Positions 569 through 21,236 of a stretch of 52,487 nt of DNA are shown here, in pieces (position 1 is the first letter of the stretch; each line of letters begins with the position of its first letter). The DNA lies in NCBI GenBank assembly GCA_025963935.1, contig JAOPZV010000299.1, positions 1 to 52,487 of the forward strand. The letters run 5' to 3'. The notes under the pieces were generated by a model. That model was not told the DNA's origin and made no database searches. It was given only the letters and a program-made list of their open reading frames with translations. The stretch is from Solirubrobacterales bacterium (GTDB lineage Bacteria; Actinomycetota; Thermoleophilia; Solirubrobacterales; Solirubrobacteraceae). The position numbers were made by a program, and so were the translations under genes.

Positions 569-1891
569 ATGGGAATAGATAGGACCGGCGGAGAGGACCT
601 CTCGCCGCTCTACAGGCGCCTGCCGTACGGGCCCAAACGGATCGATCGCGACGAGGTGGCCCGCAATCAGCGCGCACGGCTCTATGGCGCGATGATGGAG
701 TCGGTCGATCGGCGCGGCTACCGGGCCACGACCGTCGCCCACCTGGTCGCGCTTGCCGGCGTATCGCGCAGGGCCTTCTACGAACAGTTCCCCAACAAGG
801 AACACTGCTTCCTGGCCACCTACGACATCGTGGTCGCTCGCGAGCGCAAGCGGGTGACCGAGGCGTGGAAGCGCGAGCGCGGCTGGACGAACCGCCTGCA
901 TGCGGCCTGCGGGACATTGCTGGAGGACATCGCTCGTGATCCGAAGGGCCCCCGCCTGGTGCTGATCGAGTCGCTGGCACTCGGAGCGAGCGGGCGAGAA
1001 CGCATGCAGCTCGCCGGCCTCACCTTCGAGAGGCTCCTCGCGACCGTCTTTCGCATCGCGCCCGACGGCGCCGCGCTGCCGGCGCTCGCCTCACGAGCGG
1101 TCGTCGGCGGGATCCGTCAGGTCCTCTTCATGCGCATGCTCGAGGATCGCCACAGCGAGCTCGACGCGCTGACCGACGAAGTCCTCGACTGGATCGAGTC
1201 CTACCGCTCGCCCGCCGCCGCGCGGCTGCTCAGCGCCGCCTCGCCTCCCCCGCGCCAGCCACCCCTCGTCCGCGCCGCGTTCCTGCATTGCGAAGACAGG
1301 CGCGCGCGAGCCCTCGGCTCGCTCGTGGACCTGACCATCGACGGCGGCTACGCCGCGCTGACGGACGGCCAGATCGCACAGTTCGCGGGCATCTCGACGG
1401 AGGCCTTCCATCAGGAGTTCGCCAACAAGGAGGAGTGCTTCCTGGCGGTGCTCGACGAATTCACCGGCGAAGCGCTCGGCGCGGCGAAGACGGCGCTCGA
1501 GTGCGGGCAGTCCTGGCCGCAGGCGGTCGATCGGGCGATGCGCGCGTTCATCGAACATCTCCTTGCGCGACGCGCTCTGCTGAGGATCGCCTTCATCGAC
1601 CTGTTCGAAGTGGGCCCCGCGGTGAGCGGCCGTCTGGCGACGTCGATCGAAGCGCTGACAGCGCTCCTGACCGAGCCGGGCCCGCCCCCCCGCCGCGCAC
1701 CGACGCTCGCCCGGGAAGCGGTCAGCGGCGCGATCTGGGCGGTGCTTGCGAGCTGTGCCTCCGGGGACGGCGCCTCGCGCCTGCCGCTGCTGGTCGATCA
1801 GCTGACGTTCATCGTGCTCGCCCCATACATCGGGCCGAAGGCCGCGACGGAGGCGATCCGCGCCGGCCGCACGCAGGCGCGCCCGGCCTGA
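569..1891 (+). CDS. TetR/AcrR-family transcriptional regulator with two tandem TetR units
   Basis: Two HTH motifs, GYRATTVAHLVALAGVSRRAFYEQFPNKEHCF and GYAALTDGQIAQFAGISTEAFHQEFANKEECF; 440 aa. Confidence 0.85.
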   Translation: MGIDRTGGEDLSPLYRRLPYGPKRIDRDEVARNQRARLYGAMMESVDRRGYRATTVAHLVALAGVSRRAFYEQFPNKEHCFLATYDIVVARERKRVTEAWKRERGWTNRLHAACGTLLEDIARDPKGPRLVLIESLALGASGRERMQLAGLTFERLLATVFRIAPDGAALPALASRAVVGGIRQVLFMRMLEDRHSELDALTDEVLDWIESYRSPAAARLLSAASPPPRQPPLVRAAFLHCEDRRARALGSLVDLTIDGGYAALTDGQIAQFAGISTEAFHQEFANKEECFLAVLDEFTGEALGAAKTALECGQSWPQAVDRAMRAFIEHLLARRALLRIAFIDLFEVGPAVSGRLATSIEALTALLTEPGPPPRRAPTLAREAVSGAIWAVLASCASGDGASRLPLLVDQLTFIVLAPYIGPKAATEAIRAGRTQARPA

Positions 1892-1948
1892 CGGGGCCGG
1901 CTCGCTCAGCCCGCTCGGCAAGCCCCGCATCACGGCTGGGACTCTGCG

Positions 1949-2689
1949 ATGGTGGTTGCGATGATCGAGCCGACCTTGAAGCGCATCCGCCGCGTCGGTC
2001 ACAAGGGCGCCGCGCACATCGAGCCGGGCAACACGCTCGCGAGCTTTGACGCGGCGCTGCGCCACGGCGTCGACATGATCGAGCTCGACGTTCTGAGCGA
2101 GCGCCCCGACGGCAGCGGCCGGCTGCTGGTGGCTCACGACTACGAGGACATGCGCTCGCGCACTCCGCTGAGCCTCGAGGAGGCGCTCGAGCACCTCGCC
2201 GGCGAGGAGTTCGCGGACATCGAGCTCGACGTCGACGTCAAGCTGCCGGGTTACGAGCTGCGCGTGCTCGAGACGTTGCGCGAGTTCGAGCTCGTCCCGC
2301 GGACACTGATCAGCGGGATGTTTCCCTCAGGACTCGCGTTGATCCGCGCGGCGGAGCCTGCCTTGCGCCTGGGCTGGTCGGTGCCGCGCGTGCGCCGTGA
2401 CTACACGACCGACATGCTGACCGCGATCCCCGCACTGGCGATGCTCACCGGTTACCGCGCGATGCTGCCGCGCCGCGTCCGCCTGGCGCTCGCAGAACAC
2501 CGCTTCGACGCGATCATGGCCCACTGGCGGGTGGTGACCGGGTCGCTGGTCCGAGCCGTCGCGGACGGCGGAGGCGAGCTCTACGTGTGGACCGTCGACG
2601 ACGCGAGGATGATCGCCAAGCTGACCGACATGGGCGTCGACGGCATCATCACGAACGACCCGCGACTGTTCAGCCGATCGCGCACGTAG
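1949..2689 (+). CDS. glycerophosphodiester phosphodiesterase family protein
   Basis: GHKGA...PGNTLASF...IELDV and WTVDD...GVDGIITNDP motifs. Start may be the ATG at 1961. Confidence 0.9.
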   Translation: MVVAMIEPTLKRIRRVGHKGAAHIEPGNTLASFDAALRHGVDMIELDVLSERPDGSGRLLVAHDYEDMRSRTPLSLEEALEHLAGEEFADIELDVDVKLPGYELRVLETLREFELVPRTLISGMFPSGLALIRAAEPALRLGWSVPRVRRDYTTDMLTAIPALAMLTGYRAMLPRRVRLALAEHRFDAIMAHWRVVTGSLVRAVADGGGELYVWTVDDARMIAKLTDMGVDGIITNDPRLFSRSRT

Positions 2690-3200
2690 CGACGCTGAAG
2701 CCGGCCGGGTCGGCACCGGCGAGGCTGCGGTGCCCGGCGGTCGTCGGCCGGGCCGCGGACTCGAGGACCTTCTTGCCGCGTCGCCACTGGAAGTCCACGA
2801 CCCCGCGCATGGTGTACGCGGTCTTCCCCGGCACCAGTTGGAAGCTCCTGCCCCCCTGGCGGGGCGAGGCGCCGGTACCGACGGCGACATAGCTGGAGCT
2901 CGCGCTCGACAGGTCGGTCCAGCGGTTGGTGGGCGCGTCGAGATACTGGAGGCGGAAGCTCATGTACATCTTGTCGCGGGCGCGTCCGTCCCCCGGCATC
3001 GACCCGCGGATTCCGATCGTGTTGGGCTGGTCGGTTGGGCTGCACACATCGACCGTGGCCCACAGTTCATGAGAGCTCAGCAAGGCGTGACGCAGCGCGC
3101 TTCCCTTGCCGGCGCTGCCCGGCGTGGAGGCTGCCAGCGCGGGCGCCGGCAGCGCCGCGAGGCTGACCAGCGCGGCGAGCAGGCTCTTTGCTGTGGGCAT
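2670..3200 (-). CDS. secreted hypothetical protein
   Basis: Sec-type signal peptide (MPTAKSLLAALVSLAALPAPALA) followed by a beta-rich domain with two Cys. Confidence 0.7.
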   Translation of the reverse strand: MPTAKSLLAALVSLAALPAPALAASTPGSAGKGSALRHALLSSHELWATVDVCSPTDQPNTIGIRGSMPGDGRARDKMYMSFRLQYLDAPTNRWTDLSSASSSYVAVGTGASPRQGGRSFQLVPGKTAYTMRGVVDFQWRRGKKVLESAARPTTAGHRSLAGADPAGFSVATCAIG

Positions 3201-3257
3201 GCCGTGAAGATAGCGCCGCTAAGCGTCGCTGCGCGCCGGTGTGGTATCTCCTGCACG

Positions 3258-3956
3258 ATGGCGGCTACGCGCTCAGAGGAGGTTGTGGAGCTGCTCGGAC
3301 GGGTGCCCGTCTTCTCAACGCTCGAGCGCGGCGACCTCGAACGGATCGCCGAGCTGTCGGTGCCCCGCCAGTTCGAGCCCGGCCAGGCGGTTTTTCGCGA
3401 GGGCGACGCGAGCGACACCTGCTACGTCGTCCGTGAGGGCCACGCGAGGGCGGTCCGGACCCATGGCGACGGGCGCACGATCACCCTCGCAACCTTCGGA
3501 CCCGGCGACATCTTCGGCGAGCTGGCGATGTTCGAGGACGAGCGACGCTCGGCCACAGTCGAGGCGATTGAGCTGACGAGCGTCGTGGCGGTGCTCGGAC
3601 CGGACATGCGCAGGCTGATGAGCCAGCACTCCGAGATCGCCGCGCGACTGGTCATCGCCCTCGGCCGGCGGCTGCGTGAGATGAACGAGCGCCTCTCCCG
3701 GCAGTCCTTCCAGACCGTCCAGAGCCGGGTGGCGGTGGTTCTCAGCCAGCTGGTCGCCGAGGAGGTCGCGGCGGGAAAGGGGCCCGCCGACGTGCTGCTC
3801 ACGGCCACGCAGGCCGACCTGGCGCAGTTGGCAGGGTCCTCGCGCGAGTCCGCCAGCCGCTTCCTCGCCGTGCTCGAGCGGGCCGGCGTGATTTCCCAGG
3901 GGAGGGGGCGGCTCGTCGTCCACGATCCGCAGGCGCTCAAGCAGTATGTCTTCTAG
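3258..3956 (+). CDS. Crp/Fnr-family transcriptional regulator
   Basis: cNMP-binding domain (FREGD...FGELA...RSATV) and C-terminal HTH (TQADLAQLAGSSRESASR). Start taken as ATG 3258 within the longer ORF. Confidence 0.92.
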   Translation: MAATRSEEVVELLGRVPVFSTLERGDLERIAELSVPRQFEPGQAVFREGDASDTCYVVREGHARAVRTHGDGRTITLATFGPGDIFGELAMFEDERRSATVEAIELTSVVAVLGPDMRRLMSQHSEIAARLVIALGRRLREMNERLSRQSFQTVQSRVAVVLSQLVAEEVAAGKGPADVLLTATQADLAQLAGSSRESASRFLAVLERAGVISQGRGRLVVHDPQALKQYVF

Positions 3957-7174: not shown

Positions 7175-8269
7175 CTAGACCTCCGCGACCGCCCGCGGCC
7201 CCGCGCCGACGTACTTGGCGGTCGGGCGAATCAGCTTGCCCTCGCGCTTCTGCTCGAGGATGTGCGCCGACCAGCCGGCGACCCGCGCACAGGTGAACAT
7301 CGGCGTGAAGAGGTCCGGCGGCACTTCGGCGAGGTCGAGCACCACGGCGGACCAGAACTCGACGTTGGTGGCGAGCACGCGGTCGGGCCGGCGGGCGTGG
7401 AGCTCTGCCAGCGCGGCCTTCTCGAGCGCCTCGGCCGCCTCGAAGCGCGGCGAGCCGAGTTCGCTGCATGTGCGCCGCAGGACGCGCGCGCGGGGATCTT
7501 CGGCACGGTATATGCGGTGGCCGAAGCCCATCAGTCGCTCGCCGCGATCCAGCGCGTCGGAGACCCAGCCCTCGGCATCGCCGGTCTGTTCGACCTCGTC
7601 GAGCATCTTCAGCACGCGCGAGGGTGCGCCGCCGTGCAATGGGCCCGACAGCGCGCCGACCGCGGCCGACAGCGCCGCCGCGACGTCGGCCCCCGTCGAG
7701 GCGACCACACGTGCGGTGAAGGTGGAGGCGTTCATCCCATGCTCGGCCGCGGAGATCCAGTAGGCGTCGATCGCCTTGACGTGGTCGGGGTTGGCCTCCC
7801 CGCGCCAGCGGATGAGAAAGCGCTCGGGGATCGTGCGCCCCTGGTCGACCTCTCCCTGGGGCACCGGCGGCTGGCCCGCTTCCCTCGCTGACTGCGCGAC
7901 GAACGAGAGCGCCATCACGGAGGCGCGGGCAAGGTTGTCGCGCGCCTCCTCGTCGGTGATGTCGATCAGCTGGCTGAAGCCCCACTCGGGCGCGAGCATC
8001 GCAAGGGCGGACTGGACGTCGACGCGGTGATCGCCCGAGCGTACGGTCAGCGCGTGCGGTTCGGCCGGGGGAAGGCCCGGTTTGAAGCGTCCGTCGACGA
8101 GCAGACCCCACACGTGCTCATAGGGGACGGCTCCGACAAGGTTCTCGATGTCGACGCCGCGGTAGCGCAGTGCGCCGCCCTCTTTGTCCGGCTCGGCGAT
8201 CTCGGTGGCGAAGGCGACGACGCCTTCAAGGCCCGACTGGACCTCGCTGATGGTTTGGACCTCGCTCAT
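7175..8269 (-). CDS. citA: citrate synthase 2 (CitA-type)
   Basis: GLEGVVAFATEIAEPD, EHGMNASTFTARV, GPLHGGA, MGFGHRIY and NVEFW motifs; start ATG 8269. Confidence 0.92.
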   Translation of the reverse strand: MSEVQTISEVQSGLEGVVAFATEIAEPDKEGGALRYRGVDIENLVGAVPYEHVWGLLVDGRFKPGLPPAEPHALTVRSGDHRVDVQSALAMLAPEWGFSQLIDITDEEARDNLARASVMALSFVAQSAREAGQPPVPQGEVDQGRTIPERFLIRWRGEANPDHVKAIDAYWISAAEHGMNASTFTARVVASTGADVAAALSAAVGALSGPLHGGAPSRVLKMLDEVEQTGDAEGWVSDALDRGERLMGFGHRIYRAEDPRARVLRRTCSELGSPRFEAAEALEKAALAELHARRPDRVLATNVEFWSAVVLDLAEVPPDLFTPMFTCARVAGWSAHILEQKREGKLIRPTAKYVGAGPRAVAEV

Positions 8270-8421
8270 TGCACTCGCTTTCTGGGCTCGCTGCCGACGG
8301 GGTGGGCTGCCTTGTGGGCAGGGGCACATCGTCGCAGGAAACGGCATGGGGGTAGGCTCTCCGGCAAGGGGTCAGCGGTCCGACCGACGCCGATCGGTCG
8401 ACGAAACCAGGAGGAGAAGCC

Positions 8422-10803: not shown

Positions 10804-11070
10804 ATGGCCTACGTAATCGCCGAGCCGTGCATCGGCACCAAGGACAACTCCTGTGTCGAGGTATGCCCCGTGGACTGCATCCACCCGACGCCCGACGAGC
10901 CCGGCTACGACGAGGCCGAGATGCTCTACATCGATCCGGAGGAGTGCATCGACTGCGATGCCTGTGTCGAGGCCTGCCCGGTGGATGCGTGCTTCGCGGA
11001 GGACCAGCTCCCTGAGGAGTGGCAGAAGTACTCGCAGATCAACGTCGAGTACTTCGCCAAAAGCCACTAG
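10804..11070 (+). CDS. fdxA: 7Fe ([3Fe-4S][4Fe-4S]) ferredoxin, FdxA type
   Basis: MAYVIAEPCIGTKDNSCVEVCPVDCIH...CIDCDACVEACPVDA. Confidence 0.92.
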   Translation: MAYVIAEPCIGTKDNSCVEVCPVDCIHPTPDEPGYDEAEMLYIDPEECIDCDACVEACPVDACFAEDQLPEEWQKYSQINVEYFAKSH

Positions 11071-12158
11071 GGGGCGGCGGCGCTGAGCATGTCGCGGTAA
11101 TCCGCTGCGAGAACGTCGAACACGGGCACGCCGGCGAGCGCCTCTGCCACGCGATCGCGAAGCTCGGTCGAGTCGAAGCGGTGTGAGCGGGGGGCTACCG
11201 GGTTGACCGTCAGCGCCCTCAGGTCAATCGACTCGACCGTCTGGATGTGAACCCCCTGGCTGGCGTACCATGCCGGGCCGCGGTCGGCGAGGAAGACCCG
11301 GGTGCTGTCGGCGACGACCACGACGACCTCGCGGTCGCGTCGCCGGGCGGCCTGCAGGAGGCCGCGTAGGAAGGAGTCCGGGAGCGCGCCCTCGGCCACG
11401 ACCCAGCCGGCGGCGGGGTTGTCGTCGAGCAGCTGGCCGATCTCCTCGGCGTCTGCTGTGAGCACAAAGCGCGGCGCGAGCTGGACGGGCCGTCCGTGCT
11501 CGTCGAGCAGCGCGCTGACACCGTCCTTGACGATCGCTTCGGCCGCGGCGAGCAGCGGGCCATGCTCGACCGCCGCGAGGCGCACGAGGTCGACGGCGTC
11601 AGCTGTTTGCGCGATCACCTCGCCGATGTCCTCGCTGAGCACCGCGCCGGTCGACATCACCAGACCGTCGGCGACGCTCGGGGACGAGGCGGCGCGCCGG
11701 TCGATCGCTCCATCGATCAGCACCTGCTCGGCGCCGTGCTCCAGCATCGCGTCGCTCACCGCGCGCACATCGGCCGCCGCGCTCGGACCCGCGACCTCGA
11801 TCGCGCCGCCCTGGCGCATCCGCGCGATGACCACCGTGCCGAGTGGTGTGCGGACGCTCGTGCGCTCGAGCACGTCGTGCTGGAGCGCGCTGGCGCGCAG
11901 CAGCTCGCCGGTGGTCGCGACGAGGCTCGCCGCAGGCAGGCGCACGCGCGGCTTCTCGATGCGAACGTCGATCACGTCGCGCTCCTCGCCGTCGCGTCCA
12001 ACCGACGTGACGCCGACCACCCGCCCCGCGGCCTCGAGCTCACGCAGCAGCGCCGCGAGAGCCTCGGTCTTGCCCGTGTTCTTTGCCAGCCCGACGAGCG
12101 CCAGTCTGCTGACCGAGACCGTCAGATCGGACAGCAGCAAGGAATCAGCCGGCCGCAA
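11067..12158 (-). CDS. kamB: KamB-like lysine 5,6-aminomutase reactivase subunit (P-loop protein)
   Basis: GLAKNTGKT P-loop, GVTSVGRDGE, EKPR and LIDGAIDRRA resemble KamB; overlaps the kamE stop. Confidence 0.75.
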   Translation of the reverse strand: MRPADSLLLSDLTVSVSRLALVGLAKNTGKTEALAALLRELEAAGRVVGVTSVGRDGEERDVIDVRIEKPRVRLPAASLVATTGELLRASALQHDVLERTSVRTPLGTVVIARMRQGGAIEVAGPSAAADVRAVSDAMLEHGAEQVLIDGAIDRRAASSPSVADGLVMSTGAVLSEDIGEVIAQTADAVDLVRLAAVEHGPLLAAAEAIVKDGVSALLDEHGRPVQLAPRFVLTADAEEIGQLLDDNPAAGWVVAEGALPDSFLRGLLQAARRRDREVVVVVADSTRVFLADRGPAWYASQGVHIQTVESIDLRALTVNPVAPRSHRFDSTELRDRVAEALAGVPVFDVLAADYRDMLSAAAP

Positions 12159-12900
12159 CGCGCGAGGCGAGCTCGCGCACGATGAACGTGGCCAGGTGAT
12201 GGGGGTAGGTGCCCTTCGAGAAGCCCGCGTCGTAGCCGAGCTCCTTCGCCAGCTCGTTTGACACCCGGGGGCCGCCGCACGCGAGGATCATCTCGCCGCG
12301 CCTGCCCTCCGCCTCGACCATCTCCACCAGCTCGGTCAGGTTGTGGACGTGCAGGTTCTGCTGTGTGACCGTCTGGGAGACGAGGATCGCGTCCGCGCCG
12401 ACCTCGATGGCCTTGGCTACAAGGACGCTGTTGGGAACCTGGCTGCCGAGGTTGTAGGTGCGGAAGGACCGGTAGCCCTCCAGGCCGTGATGGCCGTGAT
12501 AGCCCTTGAGGTTGAGCATCGCGTCGATTCCCACGCTGTGGGTGTCGGAGCCCGTGCTCGCTCCCACGACCACGATCGCCCGGCCGACCTGCTCCTCTGC
12601 GAAGCGCTCGATCTCCTCCTCGCTCATGTACTCGATGTCGAACCCGTCGCCCTGCAGCTCTGTGAAGTCGATGCTCTGCACGCAGCGCCCGTACATCACG
12701 AAATACGTGTAGCCGTCGGTCAGCTGCTGGTAGTGAACGACCTCCGGGTCCTCGAAACCCATCTTGCCGGCCAGCTCAAGCGCGGCCTTGCGCGCCGCAA
12801 GCGAATAGGGGACGGGCAGCGTGAAGCTGAGCTGCACCAGGCCGTCGTCGAGGTGGTCGGCATAGGGAACCACGGCCGTCAGATCGACGGACCTAGGCAT
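12145..12900 (-). CDS. kamE: lysine 5,6-aminomutase beta subunit (B12-binding, carries the PLP lysine)
   Basis: PYAD..DDG.VQLSFTLPVP dimerisation domain, DxHxxG (DTHSVG), NLKGYHGHHGLE with the PLP Lys, SQTVTQ. Confidence 0.93.
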   Translation of the reverse strand: MPRSVDLTAVVPYADHLDDGLVQLSFTLPVPYSLAARKAALELAGKMGFEDPEVVHYQQLTDGYTYFVMYGRCVQSIDFTELQGDGFDIEYMSEEEIERFAEEQVGRAIVVVGASTGSDTHSVGIDAMLNLKGYHGHHGLEGYRSFRTYNLGSQVPNSVLVAKAIEVGADAILVSQTVTQQNLHVHNLTELVEMVEAEGRRGEMILACGGPRVSNELAKELGYDAGFSKGTYPHHLATFIVRELASRVAAG

Positions 12901-14455
12901 AGCTGACCTCGCGCATCAGCTCGACCACAGGGTTGAAGTAGCCCTCCTCCACGGTCACGATCCCCTCGATGCCGCGCCCGGCGTCGACGCTCCGGCTGAC
13001 ATCGCCGAACGTCGCCTGCTCGATCGCCCTGAACAGCCCGGTCTGCGCGATTCGCTCAAGCAGCACGTGCGCGCTTGCGAGAACCTCCTGAGCGCGCGTC
13101 TGGATGACCCCGCCTTGCTTGAACTCGATCTCCTCGCCGAGGTCGTGGGCGGCGTTGAAGACGTAGTCGACGTTCTGCAGGCCGAGCACGCGGTCGTGGA
13201 TGTGGGGCGTGAAGATGCCCTCCGTCGGCACGCCGATCGTCTGCAGACCCTGCCCGGTGGCGATCGTGACCAGGTTGAAGAGCGTGTCGCTCGCGTGCGT
13301 GCGGAACAGGTTCCCGTCCATGTGCCTCGTGGGCGGCATGTACTTGACCGGGCAGTCGGGGAACAGCTCCCGCGTGAGCTGGGCCTGGGCCCACTGGTAG
13401 AGCAGGCTGTTGCGGACCGGCACGTCGATCTCGAAAGCGTCGCCCAGTGCGATCTGGGAGTCCGGCACGCCAGACTCGTGCGCGAGTTGGTGGTTGATGA
13501 ACTGAGAGGCCGTGACCGACGGCGCCGCCTCGATCGCGTCGGCGGTGCGCAGGTAGTTGTCCTCGCCGGTGTTGATCACCACGCCGAAGTAGCCGTTGAT
13601 CATGCGCGAGACCCGCTGGTCGATCAGGCCGCGCACGATGTTGATGTCGCGATAGAGGATGCCGTAGAGCGCGTCGTTGACCATGTTGTCGAATCCCTCC
13701 CATGCGCCCATCGAGGCGATCTCCGACATACACAGACCCGAGCAGAAGCTCGACAGCCGCACGTATCTCCCGTGCTGCTCGGACCACTCGTCCATCGCCT
13801 CGCGCATGATCCGGAAGTTCGCCTGCGTTGCGAACGTCCCGCCGTAGCCCTCGGTGGTCGGGCCATATGGCACGTAGTCGAGCAGGCTCTGGGCGGTCGA
13901 GCGGATCACGGCCACGATGTCTCCGCCCGCCTCCGCGACCGCCTTGGCGTGGACCACATCCTCATACACATCGCCGGTCGCCGTCAGGACGTAGCGCAGC
14001 GGAGCCGGGCTGTCTCCCAGCCGCTCGCGCATCGCGCGGCGCTCCTCGAAACGACCAGAGATGTCCTTCAACCGCGCCGCACACTCCTCCATGACACGTG
14101 TGTGGATGGCACGTTCCTCGGCGAGATCCAGCTCGGTCAACACGAGCTCGCCCGCGCTCACCGACTCGGCGATCTGCTGCGGTGTGCGGCCCGTCTGAAG
14201 CATCGCGTTGCCAATCCAGTAGGCGACGCCGCGGCCGAGGCCGCCGCGGTCGTGGACGTGGTCGACGAGCACGTTCGGCAAGGGAACGTCAAGACTGTCC
14301 GCGCCGTCCACCCCGAGCAGCCTCGTCACGCTGCGCTCGACGGACACCGTCGTGCGGCCGGCGACCTGCTCGCTGACCTGCTCGGCGATCTGTCGGGCTG
14401 CCTGGCGACAGGCGCTCACCACGCCGGGATCGAGGCCCAGCTTCGAGTTGCTCAT
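12893..14455 (-). CDS. kamD: lysine 5,6-aminomutase alpha subunit (PLP TIM barrel)
   Basis: TTVSVERSVTRLLGVDG, VIRSTAQSLLDYVPYG, CSGLCM, NDALYGIL, INTGEDNYL and KYMPPT motifs. Confidence 0.95.
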   Translation of the reverse strand: MSNSKLGLDPGVVSACRQAARQIAEQVSEQVAGRTTVSVERSVTRLLGVDGADSLDVPLPNVLVDHVHDRGGLGRGVAYWIGNAMLQTGRTPQQIAESVSAGELVLTELDLAEERAIHTRVMEECAARLKDISGRFEERRAMRERLGDSPAPLRYVLTATGDVYEDVVHAKAVAEAGGDIVAVIRSTAQSLLDYVPYGPTTEGYGGTFATQANFRIMREAMDEWSEQHGRYVRLSSFCSGLCMSEIASMGAWEGFDNMVNDALYGILYRDINIVRGLIDQRVSRMINGYFGVVINTGEDNYLRTADAIEAAPSVTASQFINHQLAHESGVPDSQIALGDAFEIDVPVRNSLLYQWAQAQLTRELFPDCPVKYMPPTRHMDGNLFRTHASDTLFNLVTIATGQGLQTIGVPTEGIFTPHIHDRVLGLQNVDYVFNAAHDLGEEIEFKQGGVIQTRAQEVLASAHVLLERIAQTGLFRAIEQATFGDVSRSVDAGRGIEGIVTVEEGYFNPVVELMREVSYA

Positions 14456-15990
14456 CGCAGCTCTCTGACAATCGGGAACGGGATCACCTCGCGCAGGGTG
14501 TCGCGTTCGGTGAGGATCATGACCAGGCGGTCGACGCCCATCCCCCCGCCGGCGGTCGGCGAGTAGCCGTACTCCAGAGCCCGCGCGTACTCCTCGTCAT
14601 TGGGATGCGGCACGTCGCCGTCGTCCACCGCCCGGCGCTTGCGCTGCTCGACGAACCGCTGCCACTCGTCGACCGGGTCGTTCAGCTCGGTGTCGCCGCT
14701 GACCAGCTCGATGCCGCCGATCACGGCATCGAAGTGCTCGGCCAGCTCGGGATGCTTGGAGTGGCGCTTGGTGATCGGGAAGGGCTCGAGCGGGAAGTCG
14801 AACACGTGGGTGGGCTGGTTGATCGTGCTCTCGATTTTCTCGGAGTAGATGTCGGCGACGACCTCAGCCCAGGTGGCGGCCGGATCCATCGGCCCATCGA
14901 GCAGCTCCGCGAGCTGCTCGCGTGTGGACTCCATGAAGTCGACACCGAACCGCTCCAGGATCAGCTCGCGCATCGTCACCCGCCGCCACGGCTTCGCGAG
15001 GTCGATCTCCTCGCCGCCCCGCATGATGACCGTGCGCCCCAGCGCCTTCTGGGCCACGTCGCGGAACATTTCTTCGGTCACCGTCGCGACGTCGTTGTAG
15101 TCCGAGTAGGCGCACATGAACTCGATGATCGTGAACTCGGGTGAGTGCTTTGGGGAGATCCCCTCGTTGCGGAACACCTTGCCCATGTCGTAGACGTTCT
15201 CCATGCCGCCCACGATGCAGCGGTTGAGGAACAGCTCGACGGAGATGCGCAGATACAGATCGCGGTCCAGGGCGTTGTGGTGCGTGGTGAAGGGCCTGGA
15301 CCCGGCGCCGCCCGCCAGCGACTGCAGGGCGGGGGTTTCGATCTCCACGAAGTTCCGCTCGGCCAGCCATTCGCGGATCGCGAGGACGATCTTGTTCCGC
15401 GTGATGAACAGCTCGCGCGTCTCCTCGTTGGCGAGCAGGTCGAGCTCGCGGTAGCGATAGCGCGTACCCGTGTCGCCCAGGCCGTGGTGCTTGTCCGGGG
15501 GCGGGCGGAGCGTCTTGGTGAGCAGCGTGCACTCGACCACCGCGAGCGCGAGCTGGCCCCGCTGGGTGACGTACACGCTGCCGAGGACCCCCACTATGTC
15601 GCCGATATCGAGGTTGAGGATGCGGTTGAAGGCCTCTTCGCCGAGGGAATCGAACCGCACCACGACCTGGATCTGGCCGGACAGGTCTCGCACGTCGAGG
15701 AAGGCGGTCTTGCCGTGGACGCGTCGTGAGATCAGCCGGCCGGCGATCTGGTGGCGCAGATCCGGGTGCTCGCCCTGCTCGAGCTTCGTCGGGTCGTGGG
15801 CCGCGACCAGGTCAGCGATCCGCGTGCGGGTGTTCCACAGGCTGACCGGTGGGTAGGGGTCTATCCCTTCTGCCCGCAGCCTCTCCATCTTCGCGCGCCG
15901 TTCATCGAATTCGACGACGCCGTCGCCGCCGGCATGACCGGTGTCGGACCGGTCGTCCTGCTCCTCCTCCTGCTGGTTCTTTACTGGCAT
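14452..15990 (-). CDS. lysS: class II lysyl-tRNA synthetase-like protein (full length, divergent amino-acid pocket)
   Basis: OB-fold anticodon domain (GRLISRRVHGKTAFLDVRDLSGQIQV), motif 1 (FVEIETP), motif 2 (FRNEGISPKHSPEF), motif 3 (GMGVDRLVMIL). 4-nt ATGA overlap with kamD. Confidence 0.9.
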   Translation of the reverse strand: MPVKNQQEEEQDDRSDTGHAGGDGVVEFDERRAKMERLRAEGIDPYPPVSLWNTRTRIADLVAAHDPTKLEQGEHPDLRHQIAGRLISRRVHGKTAFLDVRDLSGQIQVVVRFDSLGEEAFNRILNLDIGDIVGVLGSVYVTQRGQLALAVVECTLLTKTLRPPPDKHHGLGDTGTRYRYRELDLLANEETRELFITRNKIVLAIREWLAERNFVEIETPALQSLAGGAGSRPFTTHHNALDRDLYLRISVELFLNRCIVGGMENVYDMGKVFRNEGISPKHSPEFTIIEFMCAYSDYNDVATVTEEMFRDVAQKALGRTVIMRGGEEIDLAKPWRRVTMRELILERFGVDFMESTREQLAELLDGPMDPAATWAEVVADIYSEKIESTINQPTHVFDFPLEPFPITKRHSKHPELAEHFDAVIGGIELVSGDTELNDPVDEWQRFVEQRKRRAVDDGDVPHPNDEEYARALEYGYSPTAGGGMGVDRLVMILTERDTLREVIPFPIVRELR

Positions 15991-15999
15991 ATCGAGACG

Positions 16000-16030
16000 A
16001 TCCTCTCAGGTGGTACACGCTTGTCAAGCG
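16000..16030 (-). promoter_or_regulatory. putative promoter of the lysS-kam operon
   Basis: Minus-strand TTGACA (16027-16022), 16-nt spacer, GAGGAT, then 9 nt to the ATG. The -35 lies inside the palindrome CGCTTG-T-CAAGCG. Confidence 0.5.
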
Positions 16031-16155: not shown

Positions 16156-17316
16156 TCAGGCCATCGGCAGCGACATGCCCACGGGTTTCGGGCTGCCCTG
16201 CGGCTCGGCGGCTGCAGTTCCCGCCACCTCGACCAGCGGGAGGACCGGTAGCGCGACCGGTGACATCGCTATCAGCCCGCGCGCGATCTGATGGATCGCC
16301 TGGGCGGCTGGATCGTCCGGATCCTCGATCACCAGGGGGACGCCGTCGTCGGACTGGGCACGCAGCGGCATCGTCAACGGAACCCGCCCGAGCAGCGGAA
16401 CGTCGAGCTCCTCGGCGAGCTCGTTACCGCCACCCTCGCCAAAGATCGCGAAGCGCTCGCCCGACGGCGTCGTGAAGCTCGACATGTTCTCGATCACGCC
16501 GCTGATCTCCAGCGACACCTTGTGGGCCATGTGGGCCGCTCGTCGCGCCACTTTCTGGGCGGCCTGCTGTGGCGTGGTGACGATCAGGAACTGCGCCTGC
16601 GGCAGCAGCTGCGCGAGCGTCATCGAGACGTCGCCCGTCCCCGGTGGGAGGTCGACGAGCAGGTAGTCCAGCGCTCCCCATTCCACGTCCTGCAGGAACT
16701 GGGTGAGCGCCTTGTGCAGCATCGGTCCGCGCCACACGACGGCCGCGTCCTCCTCGACGAAGAAGCCGATCGACATCACCTTCACGCCGTGCGCCTCGAG
16801 CGGGATGATCTTTCGCTGCGGCGAGACCGGCGGACGCGTCGAGCCCAGCCCGTACATACGCGGGATCGAGTAGCCCCACACGTCCGCGTCGAGCACTCCC
16901 ACCCGCTTGCCCTCACCCATCAGCGCCGCAGCCAGGTTCGCCGTCAACGTCGACTTGCCGACGCCGCCCTTGCCCGAGCCGATGCACAGCACGTTGGAGA
17001 CCTGCGCGAGGGCGCCGGCCGGCAGGCTCGCGCGACCGAGCTTCTGTTGCAGTGCCGCCTTCTGGCCGTCGTCGAGCACGTCGAAGTAGACGTTCACGTG
17101 CGTCACGCCCTCGAGCGCCGAGACCGCCCCCGCGACGGCGCTCTGGAAGTGCCCCTTGATCGGGCACCCGGGCGTTGTGAGCGACACGGTGATGTCCACG
17201 ACGCCATTCGCACCGGCCTCGATCGAGCGCACCATGTCGAGCTCGACGATCGAGCGATGGAGCTCGGGGTCGATGACCACCTCGAGCGCTCTGCGGATCT
17301 CGTTGTTGTCGATCAC
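16156..17316 (-). CDS. mrp: Mrp/ApbC (NBP35) Fe-S cluster carrier ATPase
   Basis: N-terminal DUF59 (VIDPELHRSIVELDMV...TTPGCP), GSGKGGVGKST, VVWRGPM, DLPPGTGD and ENMS. GTG start 17316. Confidence 0.95.
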   Translation of the reverse strand: MIDNNEIRRALEVVIDPELHRSIVELDMVRSIEAGANGVVDITVSLTTPGCPIKGHFQSAVAGAVSALEGVTHVNVYFDVLDDGQKAALQQKLGRASLPAGALAQVSNVLCIGSGKGGVGKSTLTANLAAALMGEGKRVGVLDADVWGYSIPRMYGLGSTRPPVSPQRKIIPLEAHGVKVMSIGFFVEEDAAVVWRGPMLHKALTQFLQDVEWGALDYLLVDLPPGTGDVSMTLAQLLPQAQFLIVTTPQQAAQKVARRAAHMAHKVSLEISGVIENMSSFTTPSGERFAIFGEGGGNELAEELDVPLLGRVPLTMPLRAQSDDGVPLVIEDPDDPAAQAIHQIARGLIAMSPVALPVLPLVEVAGTAAAEPQGSPKPVGMSLPMA

Positions 17317-17524: not shown

Positions 17525-18085
17525 TCAGACGAGGCTGAGGACGCGCTCCTGAACGCGGTTGGCGAGCTCAGAGCCGTTCTTGGCAACCACGTCGCGACGC
17601 GACTCGACTGTCTTCTCGAGCTCGCGACGGCGCTGGCGCAGTTCGCGCTCGACCCGAACACGGGCTTTGCGAACCTCGCGCTCGAGCCTGTTGCGGGCTG
17701 TGATGCCACGGCGCTCGAAGCGGCGCAGCTGAGCCTGCGCTTTGGCGGCGGAGGAATAGCTCGAGATCGTGTCGCTGACCGTCGAGACGACGCGGTCGCG
17801 GGCGATCAGGGCCGCACCGACGGGGATGAGGACGGCGCGCTCGGCGTAGTCACCGACGACCTCCGCCGTGTCACGGGTCGCGGTCTGCGTCTGGCGCAGG
17901 GCGGCCTCCGTCTGGTGGGTTGCGCGGGTGCGAGCGGCCTTCGCCCGGGTCGCTTTCGACTGCGTGGTGCCGCGCGTCGTCGAGCGGCTGCGGCGCGCGC
18001 TGGATGCTTTGCTCGACGCCGGTTTGCGTGCAGCTTTTGCGCGCGCTTTGGGTCGGCTTGCTGGGGTGGTGGGGGAAGTTGGCAT
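17525..18085 (-). CDS. basic coiled-coil protein, phasin/HBHA-like
   Basis: Ala/Arg/Lys/Ser-rich N-terminus, a short hydrophobic AVLIPVGAALIA segment, then a charged helix. RBS GGAG. Confidence 0.7.
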   Translation of the reverse strand: MPTSPTTPASRPKARAKAARKPASSKASSARRSRSTTRGTTQSKATRAKAARTRATHQTEAALRQTQTATRDTAEVVGDYAERAVLIPVGAALIARDRVVSTVSDTISSYSSAAKAQAQLRRFERRGITARNRLEREVRKARVRVERELRQRRRELEKTVESRRDVVAKNGSELANRVQERVLSLV

Positions 18086-18264: not shown

Positions 18265-19398
18265 TTAGTTTGTAACAGGAGGAACATGCGTTCGATTAAT
18301 CGAACCGTTAGGTGGGTCGCTCTTCATCCTCGAGATCCACCGCGCGGGCTGCTCGAGCTCCGCGGTGCTCGGAAGCGCCTCCGGCCCACTCCACGCAAGC
18401 GCCAGTGCCTGCGGGCCGCCGTCGTCCACCACCGCGTCGCAGAAGCGCCGACCCATCTCATACTGGCGCAGCTTCAGCTCCAGGCCGAGCAGCCGCTCGA
18501 GCACTCTCCAGGGAAGGCCGCGGCTCTCGCGCCGGCGATTCATCGCGGCGCGCAGCCGCGGCAGCGAGGGGAGCACCTCGGCGCCGACCGCGTCCATCGT
18601 GTGCTCGGCGTGTCCCTCCACGAGCGACATCGCCGCCTGCAGCTGCTCCACCAGGCGCCAGCGGTCCTCGCCCAGCGTCAAGCGCATCAGCTGTCCCTGG
18701 CGCGCGCGGTCGAGCATCTCGCGAAGCTCTGCGGGATCCGGAAGCTTGGGGCGGCGGAAGCCCCCCGTCCGCCCCGCCTCGTCGGCGCCGGAGCGGCCGG
18801 CGATGCTCACGTGCATGCCCTCGATCAACTCTTTCAGGATCGCGCCCAGATAGTCACGAAGCCACGGAGCTCCCGAGAACTGAACCGCGTGCGTGATCTC
18901 GTGGATCGTCACCCACAGGACCAACTCATCGCGATCGACACCCAGGTTGGTAGCCGCCTGGGCGAGGTTCGGCGCGAGCAGCAACAGTCGCGGGGTCACG
19001 GAGGAGTCCATCAGCGCGAGGTCGTACTGGCCGAGGACCCGCTGAGAGAGCATGCCCGTCAGTGCGCCGACCTGCGCCCCGAGCAGCAGCCCGGAGGCCG
19101 AGCGCAGTGGACCGCCCAGGGGACCCGCGAAGCGGACGGCGTCCGCGTCCATCTGGTCGGTGAGCGTCGCGAGCACCGGCTGCATCGTCTTCAGGTTGGC
19201 GGCGATCCACGTCCGGCGATCGACTGCCTCGATCGGCGGCAGCTCGGCCGGTACGCCGAGCCCGCTGTACTCGCTGACCCGGGCCGCGAAGTCGCGTGCG
19301 AGCGGCTCGACGGCCGTCGCTGAGACGCCGCCGCTGGGCGGAGAGCCCGCGATCAGCTCGCCCACCCGCTGCGCCGCGCGCCAGTCGATCATGTCCAT
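18265..19398 (-). CDS. zinc-dependent metalloprotease (actinobacterial zincin, DUF2342-like)
   Basis: HEITH zinc motif, downstream EGHAE, RVLGQYD and LGLELKLRQY. Confidence 0.85.
   Translation of the reverse strand: MDMIDWRAAQRVGELIAGSPPSGGVSATAVEPLARDFAARVSEYSGLGVPAELPPIEAVDRRTWIAANLKTMQPVLATLTDQMDADAVRFAGPLGGPLRSASGLLLGAQVGALTGMLSQRVLGQYDLALMDSSVTPRLLLLAPNLAQAATNLGVDRDELVLWVTIHEITHAVQFSGAPWLRDYLGAILKELIEGMHVSIAGRSGADEAGRTGGFRRPKLPDPAELREMLDRARQGQLMRLTLGEDRWRLVEQLQAAMSLVEGHAEHTMDAVGAEVLPSLPRLRAAMNRRRESRGLPWRVLERLLGLELKLRQYEMGRRFCDAVVDDGGPQALALAWSGPEALPSTAELEQPARWISRMKSDPPNGSINRTHVPPVTN
18281..18295. promoter_or_regulatory. second LexA (SOS) box
   Basis: GGAAC-ATGC-GTTCGA, lying within the 3' end of the upstream metalloprotease ORF. 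Confidence 0.6.
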
Positions 19399-19445
19399 CC
19401 AAAGAGCGTAGCCAGGCGCAGGCCGTCTCCCCGTATCCTAGGAAT

Positions 19446-21236
19446 GTGTCTGGCTCAAGAATCGCGCCCGCCCCGCCGGAGGGCCCGCAGAGCGGAGTGC
19501 AGCAGGCCGGGTTCCTCAAGCGGGCCGAGGTGCGTGACGTCCTCGCGTGGCTTCGGCTGCTGATCGACTCCCAGGACGCCGCTGCCGTCGTACGGGCGCT
19601 CGCCAGGCCGCCGATCGAGCTGCGACAGGTCGAGCTCGCGCGGGTGATCCAGGTCGCCCGCCGGCGGAAGCTCGACCTCGTCCTAGGGCTCGCTGCGGCC
19701 ACCGAGTCGCCGCAGGTGCCGCCGGAGGCCAGGGAACGCATACAACGGTTCGTCGAGCTTCATCGCAGCGCGGCCAGCGAGCTCCACACGCTGGCGCCGG
19801 AGGTCTTCGTCGGGCGCCTGATCGAGCGACTGGGCGTTCGCGGACGGCGCCTGCTGGCACCCGCGGACGCGGCCGAGCAGCGGGCGAGCCTGGAACGGCT
19901 CCATGCGCTGGCCGTGGAGTTCGCGCGGGGCAATCCGGGGTCCGGGATCCGCGAGCTCGCCCGCTATCTCGCCGCGGTCGTGCCCGAGGAGCGGTGGGAG
20001 ACTCGCGAGGCGGCTCCCGTGGCCACGTGGACACGCGGAGATGAGGAGCTTCAGCGCCCCGTCGAGGAATACCGCGCCGGCGCGGAGGCGCTCCCAGAGC
20101 CGGTGGCCGTACCGGTCGAGGACGCCGCCGGAGATCTCGAGGCGACGCTTCACCTGCTGCGTGAGGAGGTGCTGGCAAGCGTCGCGCGCATTGGTGGCCG
20201 GCTCGGGGAGCTGCGCCTCGACACCGATCTCGACATCTCGCATGGCGTTGCCCGCTACCTGGAGCTGCTCAAGGTCTCGGCGCTGCTGCAGCGTCCCGAC
20301 GGGCAGAGCCTCGCTGAGGCGCTCGCCGACATCAACTCCCGGCTGCTCGCCGCGACCACGCCGCTACAGCGCGAGATCCTCCAGACCTCACCGCTCGACG
20401 ACACGCTGCTGGCCGTCGAGACAGACGAGCGGGCCCGTGCGCAAGCTCTCGCTCCGCGTGAGGGGCGCTCGCTCGGACCCTTTCTTCCCCGCAGGGGTGT
20501 CGGCCTGGCGCTGTCGGCGTCCGACATCCAGACCTACCGCAGCTGCCCGCTGAGATACAAGTTCGCCCGCGTCCTGCGGATCCCGCGTGAGCAGACGGTC
20601 CACCAGCGCTTCGGCATCGTCGTGCACCAGGTACTCGAGCGCTTTCACTCCGACGGGGGCGAGACGCTCACACAGATGCTGGAGCTGCTCGACGCCGGGT
20701 GGCGGCGCAGCGCTCTCGGTGACGGCGAGCACGAGCAGGAGCTGCGCGCGAAGGCGACGGCTGCGCTGACCCTCTATCACGCGCGTCTGAGCGAGCACGA
20801 TGCCGAACCGGTGTGGTTTGAGCGACAGTTCGACTTCCGCCTGGGCCCGCATCACCTGCGGGGACGCGTCGACCGCGTCGACCGCCTGCTCGGCGGGTCG
20901 CTCGCCGGCGAGGCCGCCGAGGAGTACGAGCTGATCGACTACAAGACCTCGCGGCCGAAGACCGCCGAGCAGCTTGCCGACGACGTCCAGCTCTCGCTGT
21001 ATGCGCTCGCCGCCCGTGAAGCGTGGGACCTGGGCTCCTCGCGGCAGGCCTACTACTACGTGCTCGACGACCTGAAGGTCCCCGTGCCGCGCACCGATCA
21101 GGATGCCGAGTCGGTCAAGGACATCGTCCTCGAGGTCGGCGACGGCATACTCGCCCAGGCGTTCGAGCCGACGCCGTCCCGCGCGGCCTGCTCGATCTGC
21201 GACTACCGCATCGTCTGTCCCGCGGCGGAGGGCTAG
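19446..21236 (+). CDS. PD-(D/E)XK RecB/AddB-type nuclease with an N-terminal UvrD-like fragment
   Basis: FLKRAEVRDVLAWLRLL (UvrD 2B-like), LSASDIQTYRSCPLRY, GRVDRVD...LIDYKT, QLSLYA and C-terminal CxxC-x5-C. GTG start 6 nt after TATCCT. Confidence 0.85.
   Translation: MSGSRIAPAPPEGPQSGVQQAGFLKRAEVRDVLAWLRLLIDSQDAAAVVRALARPPIELRQVELARVIQVARRRKLDLVLGLAAATESPQVPPEARERIQRFVELHRSAASELHTLAPEVFVGRLIERLGVRGRRLLAPADAAEQRASLERLHALAVEFARGNPGSGIRELARYLAAVVPEERWETREAAPVATWTRGDEELQRPVEEYRAGAEALPEPVAVPVEDAAGDLEATLHLLREEVLASVARIGGRLGELRLDTDLDISHGVARYLELLKVSALLQRPDGQSLAEALADINSRLLAATTPLQREILQTSPLDDTLLAVETDERARAQALAPREGRSLGPFLPRRGVGLALSASDIQTYRSCPLRYKFARVLRIPREQTVHQRFGIVVHQVLERFHSDGGETLTQMLELLDAGWRRSALGDGEHEQELRAKATAALTLYHARLSEHDAEPVWFERQFDFRLGPHHLRGRVDRVDRLLGGSLAGEAAEEYELIDYKTSRPKTAEQLADDVQLSLYALAAREAWDLGSSRQAYYYVLDDLKVPVPRTDQDAESVKDIVLEVGDGILAQAFEPTPSRAACSICDYRIVCPAAEG

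Follow-up and report, generated by a model that had tools for sequence, protein, structure and literature searches.

A lysyl-tRNA synthetase paralogue linked to lysine 5,6-aminomutase in Solirubrobacteraceae and its possible role in sense-codon recoding

Introduction

Two described systems come closest to the one considered here. The pyrrolysine system consists of PylB, PylC and PylD, the synthetase PylRS and tRNA-Pyl; to our knowledge, selenocysteine and pyrrolysine are the sole natural additions to the genetic code, both at stop codons. In the EpmA/EpmB pair, EpmA is devoid of an anticodon domain and EpmB is a radical-SAM lysine 2,3-aminomutase. The present analysis concerns a stretch of 52,487 nucleotides (nt) from a Solirubrobacterales bacterium (contig JAOPZV010000299.1, assembly GCA_025963935.1), here called the window, whose minus strand carries between positions 11067 and 15990 the genes for a lysyl-tRNA synthetase (LysRS) paralogue (LysRS2, gene lysS2), the two subunits of lysine 5,6-aminomutase (KamD and KamE) and the reactivase subunit KamB. 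The original prediction, made from the window alone, was that this operon makes a lysine isomer, 2,5- or 3,5-diaminohexanoate, and activates it with a dedicated synthetase, for a destination that was left open. Comparison with related genomes indicates that LysRS2 is probably a dedicated synthetase that has been re-tooled and has a supply enzyme of its own. The chance that natural recoding has given a sense codon, be it AAA and/or GAA through a five-armed tRNA, to a non-standard residue (2,5-diaminohexanoate, for example) appears to be about even.

The LysRS Paralogue and Its Pocket

The lysS2 gene (14452–15990, minus strand) encodes a protein of 512 amino acids that passes the LysRS models PRK00484 (score 540, cut-off 468) and TIGR00499 (479, cut-off 428). 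It was correctly recognized as a paralogue: in the host genome (G000; 82.5% complete, 69.5% GC, with its closest loci in metagenome-assembled genomes of Solirubrobacteraceae) a normal lysS is located on contig C290, after greA, with 45% identity to the paralogue, and a normal lysS accompanies the paralogue throughout the genus, whose members are uncultured soil actinobacteria. Both the OB-fold anticodon domain and the class II catalytic domain are present above the family cut-off; thus, unlike EpmA, and as had been anticipated, the paralogue keeps its anticodon domain, the conservation of which matches that in housekeeping LysRS (0.76 vs 0.77).

According to the sections of a preprint that deal with human LysRS (bioRxiv 10.1101/2024.12.07.627298), the lysine chain is stacked between Y341 and Y499 and E501 binds the epsilon-amine, while R136, F144, Q155 and E195 read U35/U36. 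Residue numbers follow here those of E. coli LysU, with the roles mapped by motif spacing from the human enzyme, so that Y341, Y499 and E501 become Y280, F426 and E428, and the anticodon-reading residues become R77, F84, Q95 and E134. The paralogue keeps R77, F84 and Q95 of the OB-fold and E240, R262, E278, E421, E428 and R480 of the catalytic domain; its changes are E134Q, A238S, Y280M, R412H, E414D, N424S, F426D and L474G, the first seven of which are Q146, S250, M292, H419, D421, S431 and D433 in the window protein.

These changes are not peculiar to the window. In an alignment of 103 full-length paralogues, prepared after 10 of 142 matches had been left out as partial, D426, S424, H412 and D414 are found in all 103 and position 280 is M in 92 and L in 10; R77, F84 and Q95 are likewise retained in 103/103, and E134 is replaced by Q in 94. 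Both aromatics that sandwich the lysine are replaced across the paralogue clade and the amine-binding E428 is retained, whereas all 24 housekeeping LysRS sequences keep Y280, F426 and E428. Among 150 distant LysRS representatives, position 426 is F or Y in 135 and D in 8; the 120 closest database proteins carry the catalytic-domain signature of the window paralogue. A pocket rebuilt in this way is what would be expected of the proposed lysine-isomer synthetase. An AlphaFold model built from 11 sequences reached a predicted local distance difference test value (pLDDT) of 67, below 50 at the active site, and was not used.

Conservation of the Module and Its Probable Supply Enzymes

A genome scan yielded 440 kamD relatives, and the linkage between lysS2 and the kam genes was tallied for the best 80 loci: the paralogue is present at 79 of these, kamE at 79 and kamB at 75, the remaining locus beginning 49 nt before kamD. 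The association predicted from one contig is thus conserved and is not due to chance. kamD occurs in 46 of 60 genomes of the host genus (including the unpublished G041) and in 0/40 from other families of the order. The paralogue itself (matches of at least 59% identity) is found in 56/59 genus genomes and in all 24 that are at least 90% complete, the three genomes without a match being 57–63% complete. In a family-wide draw it was scored in 15/16 genus genomes (not in G365) and in 8/284 others, the latter comprising five stand-alone paralogues and three housekeeping genes. No fewer than four chromosomal locations and three different gene orders were seen for the module, and no third gene accompanies it constantly. 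In four loci (L069, L165, L166 and L169) a second, divergent kamD-kamE-(kamB)-lysS copy is present, convergent with the first in L069 and L165.

In the Actinomycetota at large, kamD was found in 30/400 genomes (a tally that includes five unpublished ones). None of the 16 kamD regions fetched from these other Actinomycetota gave a LysRS match, and most of them hold kamA-, kdd- and kal-like open reading frames (ORFs), recognized by eye. Two small-genome Actinomycetota (L326, L327) have kamD-kamE with neither evident fermentation genes nor a LysRS nearby.

The window KamD, the alpha subunit (12893–14455, minus strand, 520 amino acids), scores 778 against a cut-off of 600 in NF052384, KamE, the B12-binding beta subunit (12145–12900, minus, 251 amino acids), 351 against 280 in NF052385, and KamB (11067–12158, minus) 302 against 210 in NF052386. 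The ligands of pyridoxal phosphate (PLP) named in the consulted sections of PMC3958899 are retained in genus KamD, the PLP-site residues being R184, S189, S238, Y263, R268 and N299 in window numbers. Many differences from 23 catabolic KamD are fixed in the genus, including N236S, Y237F, T303R and H339D, and these pocket changes may alter the substrate. KamE has His121, in a DxHxxG motif, and K132, which we take, following the literature on 1XRS, to be the catalytic His and the PLP Lys. In the ESM Atlas, KamB matched unnamed clusters only.

The original prediction also noted that the catabolic partners of KamDE are missing from the window, and within the genomes searched they were not found either: no KamA was above cut-off in 59 genomes, nothing in the 82.5% complete G000 (the only genome in which kdd and kal were sought) matched control-locus KamA, Kdd and Kal, and Kce stayed below cut-off in 5/5 genomes. 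A candidate Kce match on contig C269 was rejected, being a BKACE-family gene beside acyl-CoA genes and under the fermentative cut-off. As stated in the part of PMC12429584 dealing with the enzyme, 5,6-aminomutase turns over L-lysine. The simplest inference is that the KamDE product is likely 2,5-diaminohexanoate, formed from L-lysine; of the two isomers proposed at the outset, the 3,5-isomer is less favoured, as it requires beta-lysine and no kamA was found as a source of it.

The paralogue occurs without kamD in eleven genus genomes. In ten of them a class III transaminase lies directly downstream, and in the eleventh the paralogue ends at the contig end; in G198 and G341 the paralogue is likewise paired with the transaminase. 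The three transaminase copies scanned match best the diaminobutyrate transaminase models, at the cut-off of TIGR00709 (401–408 vs 401.6), and their substrate is likely, although not surely, aspartate semialdehyde. In G020, G052 and G341, lysS2 and the transaminase occupy the same slot between mrp and ferredoxin as the window operon. The paralogue is thus partnered either by KamDE or by a TIGR00709 (Dat-family) transaminase, enzymes that both handle diamines but are unrelated to each other. In a tree of 48 rows, built by a quick method, two kam clades and one transaminase clade were joined at 99% SH-aLRT, with no settled order among the three. Both deep kam clades have I276, M280, T427 and G473, where the transaminase clade has M, L, S and S; this amounts to one contrast only.

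The same Dat-type transaminase also occurs in five kam genomes, in a HypF/HypE-like cluster without LysRS. In these loci (L364–L368, in G009, G002, G044, G025 and G059) it lies downstream of the HypF-/HypE-like genes and of an isochorismatase-like ORF and is convergent with an AIRS-fold gene, possibly as part of a small-molecule cluster.

tRNA Genes

In sister genera, a tRNA gene adjoins the paralogue in 5/5 loci, with anticodon UUU in four and UCU in one, compared with 0/3 housekeeping loci. Three of these tRNAs have a common, distinct acceptor stem, and the paralogue beside tRNA(UCU) has Q95E in its anticodon domain. The single-contig genus genome G043 has 46 tRNAs, with one UUU and one CUU.

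The sister-genus loci show further features of their own. The UCU-associated paralogue (L200:1664-3196, G350; P0122 cluster, with Baekduia/Conexibacter names) combines Q95E with E240Q, S280 and D426, starts 18 nt after tRNA(UCU) among ThiF/rhodanese and PALP genes, and may represent a separate synthetase-tRNA pair. Paralogues with other pockets adjoin an odd-bodied tRNA(UUU) in L196 (positions 1859–3438, G391), directly after aspartokinase and asd, and in L198 (G345), a genome that also carries an ordinary tRNA(UUU); AAA is not enriched in these two loci, and a metagenome scan with the G391 paralogue retrieved the same locus only. In L197 and L199 (G136, G252) a paralogue with E428D has tRNA(UUU) and a SpoU methylase as neighbours, and the surrounding proteins abound in ERR-type repeats. 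In L369 and L370 (G345, G136), also from sister genera, LysRS is fused to MprF, the LysRS portion leading.

The genus has a second unusual tRNA. The sole UUC tRNA of G043 measures 96 nt; it carries a hairpin within its D-loop, the pair C11-G24, a variable loop of 5 nt and A73, and is here referred to as five-armed. This tRNA, which has a non-Glu body and was the only reader of GAA seen in G043 and G267, is found in the host genome at C104:5624-5719 (L416), and at L383:150-245. It is full-length in 16/16 genus genomes and in 0/44 others (the unpublished G103 among them), and it is the only UUC pattern match in G267; a canonical tRNA-Glu(UUC) was matched in three of four non-genus genomes checked, with none in G061. 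The relevant part of PMC9976931 gives U11-A24 and the deletion of position 47 as major Glu identity elements and A73 as a Lys element; the five-armed tRNA is without the two former and has the latter. One GluRS was found in G000 and no second one was seen.

The two tRNA-Lys(CUU) copies of G000 (C28:1-73 and C271:56-128) were considered as a dedicated tRNA and rejected, as both are situated at the ends of contigs and a single full-length copy was seen in each of 57 other genomes searched; they differ in the T-stem, probably by strain variation or an integration site. In the housekeeping LysRS of the genus, position 97, which packs on base 34, is His in 21/21, and His is absent from the seven commonest residues at that position in 126 canonical representatives; this fixed His97 would fit a narrowing to CUU. 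A tRNA-Sec was predicted by ARAGORN at C63:2131-2222 of G000.

Behaviour of AAA and GAA Codons

Codon usage separates exported from cytoplasmic proteins in the genus. For AAA as a fraction of Lys codons, the values in exported vs cytoplasmic proteins are 0.29 vs 0.09 in G000 (86 vs 1358 genes), 0.48 vs 0.06 in transaminase loci and 0.35 vs 0.11 in kam loci, compared with 0.00 vs 0.02 in non-genus loci. GAA as a fraction of Glu codons behaves similarly (0.45 vs 0.10 for the same genes of G000; 0.67 vs 0.12, 0.70 vs 0.11 and 0.06 vs 0.06 in the other three sets). CAA, read by the third U34-U35 tRNA, and GAT show no such shift. The top-ranking genes have signal peptides, pilin-like starts and penicillin-binding motifs.

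The same codons tend to be kept away from invariant positions. In G000, AAA is found at 0/115 Lys sites that are invariant in at least three outgroup orthologues (Fisher p=1e-4), and GAA at 6/250 invariant Glu sites (p=1e-6), with no depletion of the GAT control (p=0.54). Lysines of strict catalytic motifs use AAA in 0/113 cases. In other genus loci the depletion of GAA is weak or absent (23/350, 46/456). The EDxxF motif of penicillin-binding proteins uses GAG in 3/3 cases, even in GAA-rich genes.

Retention of codons at the same site was counted with one partner per gene, leaving out the operon genes and using six control codons. AAA is retained in 23/44 kam-kam pairs and in 38/55 pairs between transaminase (dat) genomes, and GAA in 72/125, 44/95 and 121/193 pairs, with controls at about 25%; outside the genus the figures are 11/74 for GAA and 1/10 for AAA, with controls at 15%. 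AAA exchanges mostly with Arg, as AAG does, which indicates a basic residue at AAA, and GAA exchanges as an acidic residue. AAA and GAA are not plain synonyms of the other Lys and Glu codons in the genus, each staying close to its parent residue.

Other assignments were tried and rejected. AAA and GAA do not stand for one identical residue, since there is no surplus of AAA-GAA exchange (4/865 vs 45/6626), and a wholesale change of GAA to a basic residue is contradicted by alignments and charge balance. Reassignment of AGA/AGG was also discarded: these codons occur in invariant and catalytic Arg columns, and tRNA-Arg(CCU/UCU) retain A20.

The lysS2 orthologues have GAA at several fixed sites (positions 27, 30, 218, 306 and 495), which might permit feedback through the five-armed tRNA, and kamD and kamE are GAA-poor. 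In the window, citrate synthase (7175–8347) likewise shows GAA and AAA at fixed positions, and an ORF at 17525–18085 is 61% AAA.

Proposed Function and Alternatives

An amine-binding pocket, a lysine isomerase and a basic codon that is not a plain synonym are best fitted by a LysRS2 that would charge tRNA(UUU) with 2,5-diaminohexanoate (or diaminobutyrate) and thereby recode AAA, in full or in part; we put this forward tentatively, at somewhat less than an even chance. KamDE, as a B12- and PLP-dependent aminomutase, would convert L-lysine to 2,5-diaminohexanoate, and in transaminase-type genomes the amino acid supplied would be 2,4-diaminobutyrate or similar. LysRS2, with its rebuilt pocket, would charge tRNA(UUU) with the lysine isomer, and AAA would be read wholly or partly as that isomer, mainly in exported proteins, AAG being left to the housekeeping LysRS. 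GAA might then stand for a glutamate-like residue by a second route, or the five-armed tRNA might be cross-charged by LysRS2. A speculative purpose would be surface proteins that are resistant to proteases or can be cross-linked.

A number of points weigh against this reading. The main objection to ribosomal use is chemical: as reported in the pertinent part of PMC8001834, side-chain amines at gamma or delta cyclise activated amino acids to lactams, as with Orn-AMP in LysRS, and ornithine and diaminobutyrate form lactams in prebiotic tests. The charged tRNA would thus be destabilised, although the methyl branch of 2,5-diaminohexanoate might slow lactam formation. Within the genus no tRNA is found beside the paralogue and tRNA(UUU) has the ordinary body of the family; the only odd genus tRNA is the five-armed UUC, which, together with E134Q, points to GAA instead. 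AAA aligns to Lys at 30–47% of outgroup sites, some invariant Lys columns do use it (14/57, 4/166 and 2/218), and its retention between G000 and dat genomes is not above controls (8/22, p=0.31). The exported class was defined by a hydropathy rule on our own gene calls, giving sets of 86, 13, 14 and 29 genes, and the p-values are overstated, the loci and genomes being related and not independent. Site-specific codon selection for translation speed or control could also be the cause of the codon pattern. The KamC/MutL-type ATPase (PF13941) was found in 0/34 genomes, although no control genome passed the cut-off either.

The five-armed tRNA(UUC) might itself be the cognate of LysRS2, with a non-standard residue read at GAA, perhaps altered on the tRNA to an acidic or neutral one, and with the AAA signal due to cross-charging or secondary. 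This is doubtful, but is the least improbable of the alternatives. The distribution of this tRNA matches that of the paralogue, it is the sole UUC tRNA in G043 and the only match in G267, one GluRS was found in G000, it lacks the major Glu determinants and has a Lys element, and the sister-paralogue tRNAs are its nearest counterparts when the acceptor, anticodon and T arms are compared (40–41/49 vs 30–38 for eight others); E134, which contacts U35/U36, is Q in most paralogues, and GAA is enriched in exported proteins of the genus (share 0.45–0.80 vs 0.09–0.12, with 0.06 in non-genus loci), rare at invariant Glu sites of G000 and fixed at sites of lysS2 itself. With the D-stem included, however, the closest body is tRNA-Arg(UCU), and the G391 paralogue (g55) has Q134 and yet adjoins a UUU tRNA. 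The pocket, with D426 and E428, suits an amine, and AAA and GAA show no surplus of mutual exchange. Moreover, GAA aligns to Glu or Asp, exchanges like GAG, is fixed at near-invariant Glu sites (lysS2 position 218: 102/109) and must be acidic for exported proteins to be neutral in charge; such acidic behaviour argues against the five-armed tRNA as cognate unless the residue is changed on the tRNA. Unlikely too, and placed next in our ranking, is the view that LysRS2 activates the diamino acid for use outside the ribosome (as a free lactam or small molecule, or passed on from tRNA to an envelope or metabolite acceptor), the codon pattern being a separate matter. It would agree with the lactam chemistry of Orn and Dab adenylates and with the Dat orthologue that five kam genomes hold apart from LysRS, but it leaves the AAA signal unexplained, and the module travels through its several sites and gene orders with no constant third gene. 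MprF was found in 0/34 genus genomes (with a positive control in 7/14), FemAB was not found in G000, Fem-like GNAT matches were strong in 3/5 only, and MurE retains the meso-diaminopimelate motif DNPR. On the destination, which had been left open, the codon evidence points to ribosomal use, and the lipid, FemAB and elongation factor P (EF-P) routes are unsupported.

That L-lysine remains the substrate of LysRS2, the enzyme being specific for tRNA(UUU), regulated or resistant to analogues, with AAA and GAA remaining Lys and Glu and controlling or pacing the synthesis of exported proteins, is distinctly unlikely in our judgement. The loss of both pocket aromatics, the covariation of the pocket with the partner enzyme and the avoidance of these codons at catalytic Lys and Glu positions, also in genes rich in GAA, a pattern that CAA lacks, stand against the passing of the lysS equivalog cut-off, the retention of all alpha-amino, ATP and E428 contacts and the alignment of both codons mostly to the standard residue. 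An EpmA-like ligase placing a lysine isomer on EF-P or another protein is suggested by the EpmA/EpmB analogy and by the PGKGG lysine loop of EF-P; it is very improbable, given a score of 174 against a cut-off of 287 in the EpmA model (TIGR00462), the equally conserved anticodon domain, and an EF-P loop that is identical in genomes with and without the paralogue. There is hardly any chance that kamDE-kamB serves ordinary lysine catabolism with a spare lysS beside it by accident, despite the fact that KamD, KamE and KamB each pass equivalog cut-offs: the linkage at nearly all of the best 80 kamD loci has survived relocation and changes of gene order, no kamA, kdd or kal was matched in G000, Kce remained under its cut-off, and active-site changes with respect to catabolic KamD are fixed.

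Organization of the Window Operon

The four ORFs, in the order lysS2, kamD, kamE and kamB and in the same orientation, are located where they had been annotated, each above curated NCBIfam cut-offs. Of the three overlaps originally described, those of lysS2/kamD (4 nt) and kamD/kamE (8 nt) are real; the 14-nt overlap of kamE and kamB probably is not, as it arises only if the farthest TTG is chosen as the kamB start. In the 11 relatives shown the homologous start falls just past the kamE stop, which makes the TTG at 12140, with no overlap, the likelier one. The gene seen as convergent at the operon end is a ferredoxin (10804–11070, plus strand), overlapping the kamB stop by 4 nt; on the other side lies an mrp/ApbC gene (16156–17316, minus). 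Both flanks are outside the module.

The operon had also been credited with a promoter of its own. A strict promoter scan found no match and missed the element TTGACA, 16 nt, TG-extended GAGGAT (16000–16027, minus), which ends about 10 nt before the lysS2 ATG and is likely of sigma-70 type; its AGGA could alternatively be the ribosome-binding site. The element is nevertheless conserved, its 8-mers CTTGACAA and AGGATCGT being kept in 59/98 and 61/98 upstream regions, respectively. No riboswitch or T-box was matched in Rfam in the window and four loci. A window ORF at 19296–21236, conserved near the operon, joins a UvrD/Rep C-terminal piece to a Cas4/RecB-like nuclease domain.

Relation to Known Systems

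No published description of this system was found among the titles and abstract openings searched, most subscription journals lying outside that scope, and the accessible part of PMC7373986 names no such LysRS paralogue. Reassignments of sense codons described in bacteria (AGG to Met, CGA/CGG; Shulgina and Eddy, PMC8629427) resemble the present case in the capture of a rare codon in a GC-skewed genome and in the tRNA evidence; in the parts of that paper, the largest such screen, that bear on bacteria, the code changes concern Arg codons only and occur between canonical amino acids, non-canonical residues being beyond prediction. If such recoding takes place, the genus would have a naturally expanded code; its 23rd residue, isobaric with lysine, would be found chiefly in the secretome, and one subclade would use a different diamine instead. 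A lysine isomer that captures a sense codon would change the code in a novel way, one that proteomics based on mass alone could not see. It would also offer a present-day example of codon capture, in a soil lineage that is abundant, and a natural synthetase for short diamino acids. Even without recoding, a tRNA-binding LysRS with a partner-matched pocket and a B12-dependent supply enzyme represents an undescribed pathway.

Among synthetases, LysRS2 shares with class II LysRS (LysS/LysU; PDB 1E1O, 3A74) the fold, the motifs, the ATP and alpha-amino contacts, and R77, F84, Q95 and E428; it differs by Y280M, F426D, N424S, R412H, A238S, L474G and E134Q and by coexisting with the canonical copy. 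LysX, a MprF-LysRS fusion, is also a second LysRS in Actinobacteria, but no MprF domain is present in the paralogue gene or in the 34 genus genomes. With respect to lysine 5,6-aminomutase and its reactivase (KamDE and KamBC; PDB 1XRS, 8T0V, 9Q1A), the PLP and B12 sites are retained and KamB is present, whereas kamA, kdd, kce, kal and kamC were not found in the genomes searched for each, the active site has fixed changes, and the enzyme is joined to a synthetase.

The EpmA/EpmB pair likewise couples a LysRS paralogue to a lysine aminomutase; here, instead, the paralogue keeps the anticodon domain, fails the EpmA models and has no KamA-type partner (0/59 above cut-off). In the pyrrolysine system, the lysine-derived amino acid is the work of a radical lysine mutase, and a class II synthetase of its own loads it for the ribosome, as LysRS2 would do; the differences lie in the use of a B12/PLP 5,6-aminomutase or a transaminase, in the origin of the synthetase as a LysRS duplicate, and in proteome-wide sense codons instead of UAG. 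The system described here would work like the pyrrolysine system and is superficially like EpmA/EpmB, and is a member of neither.

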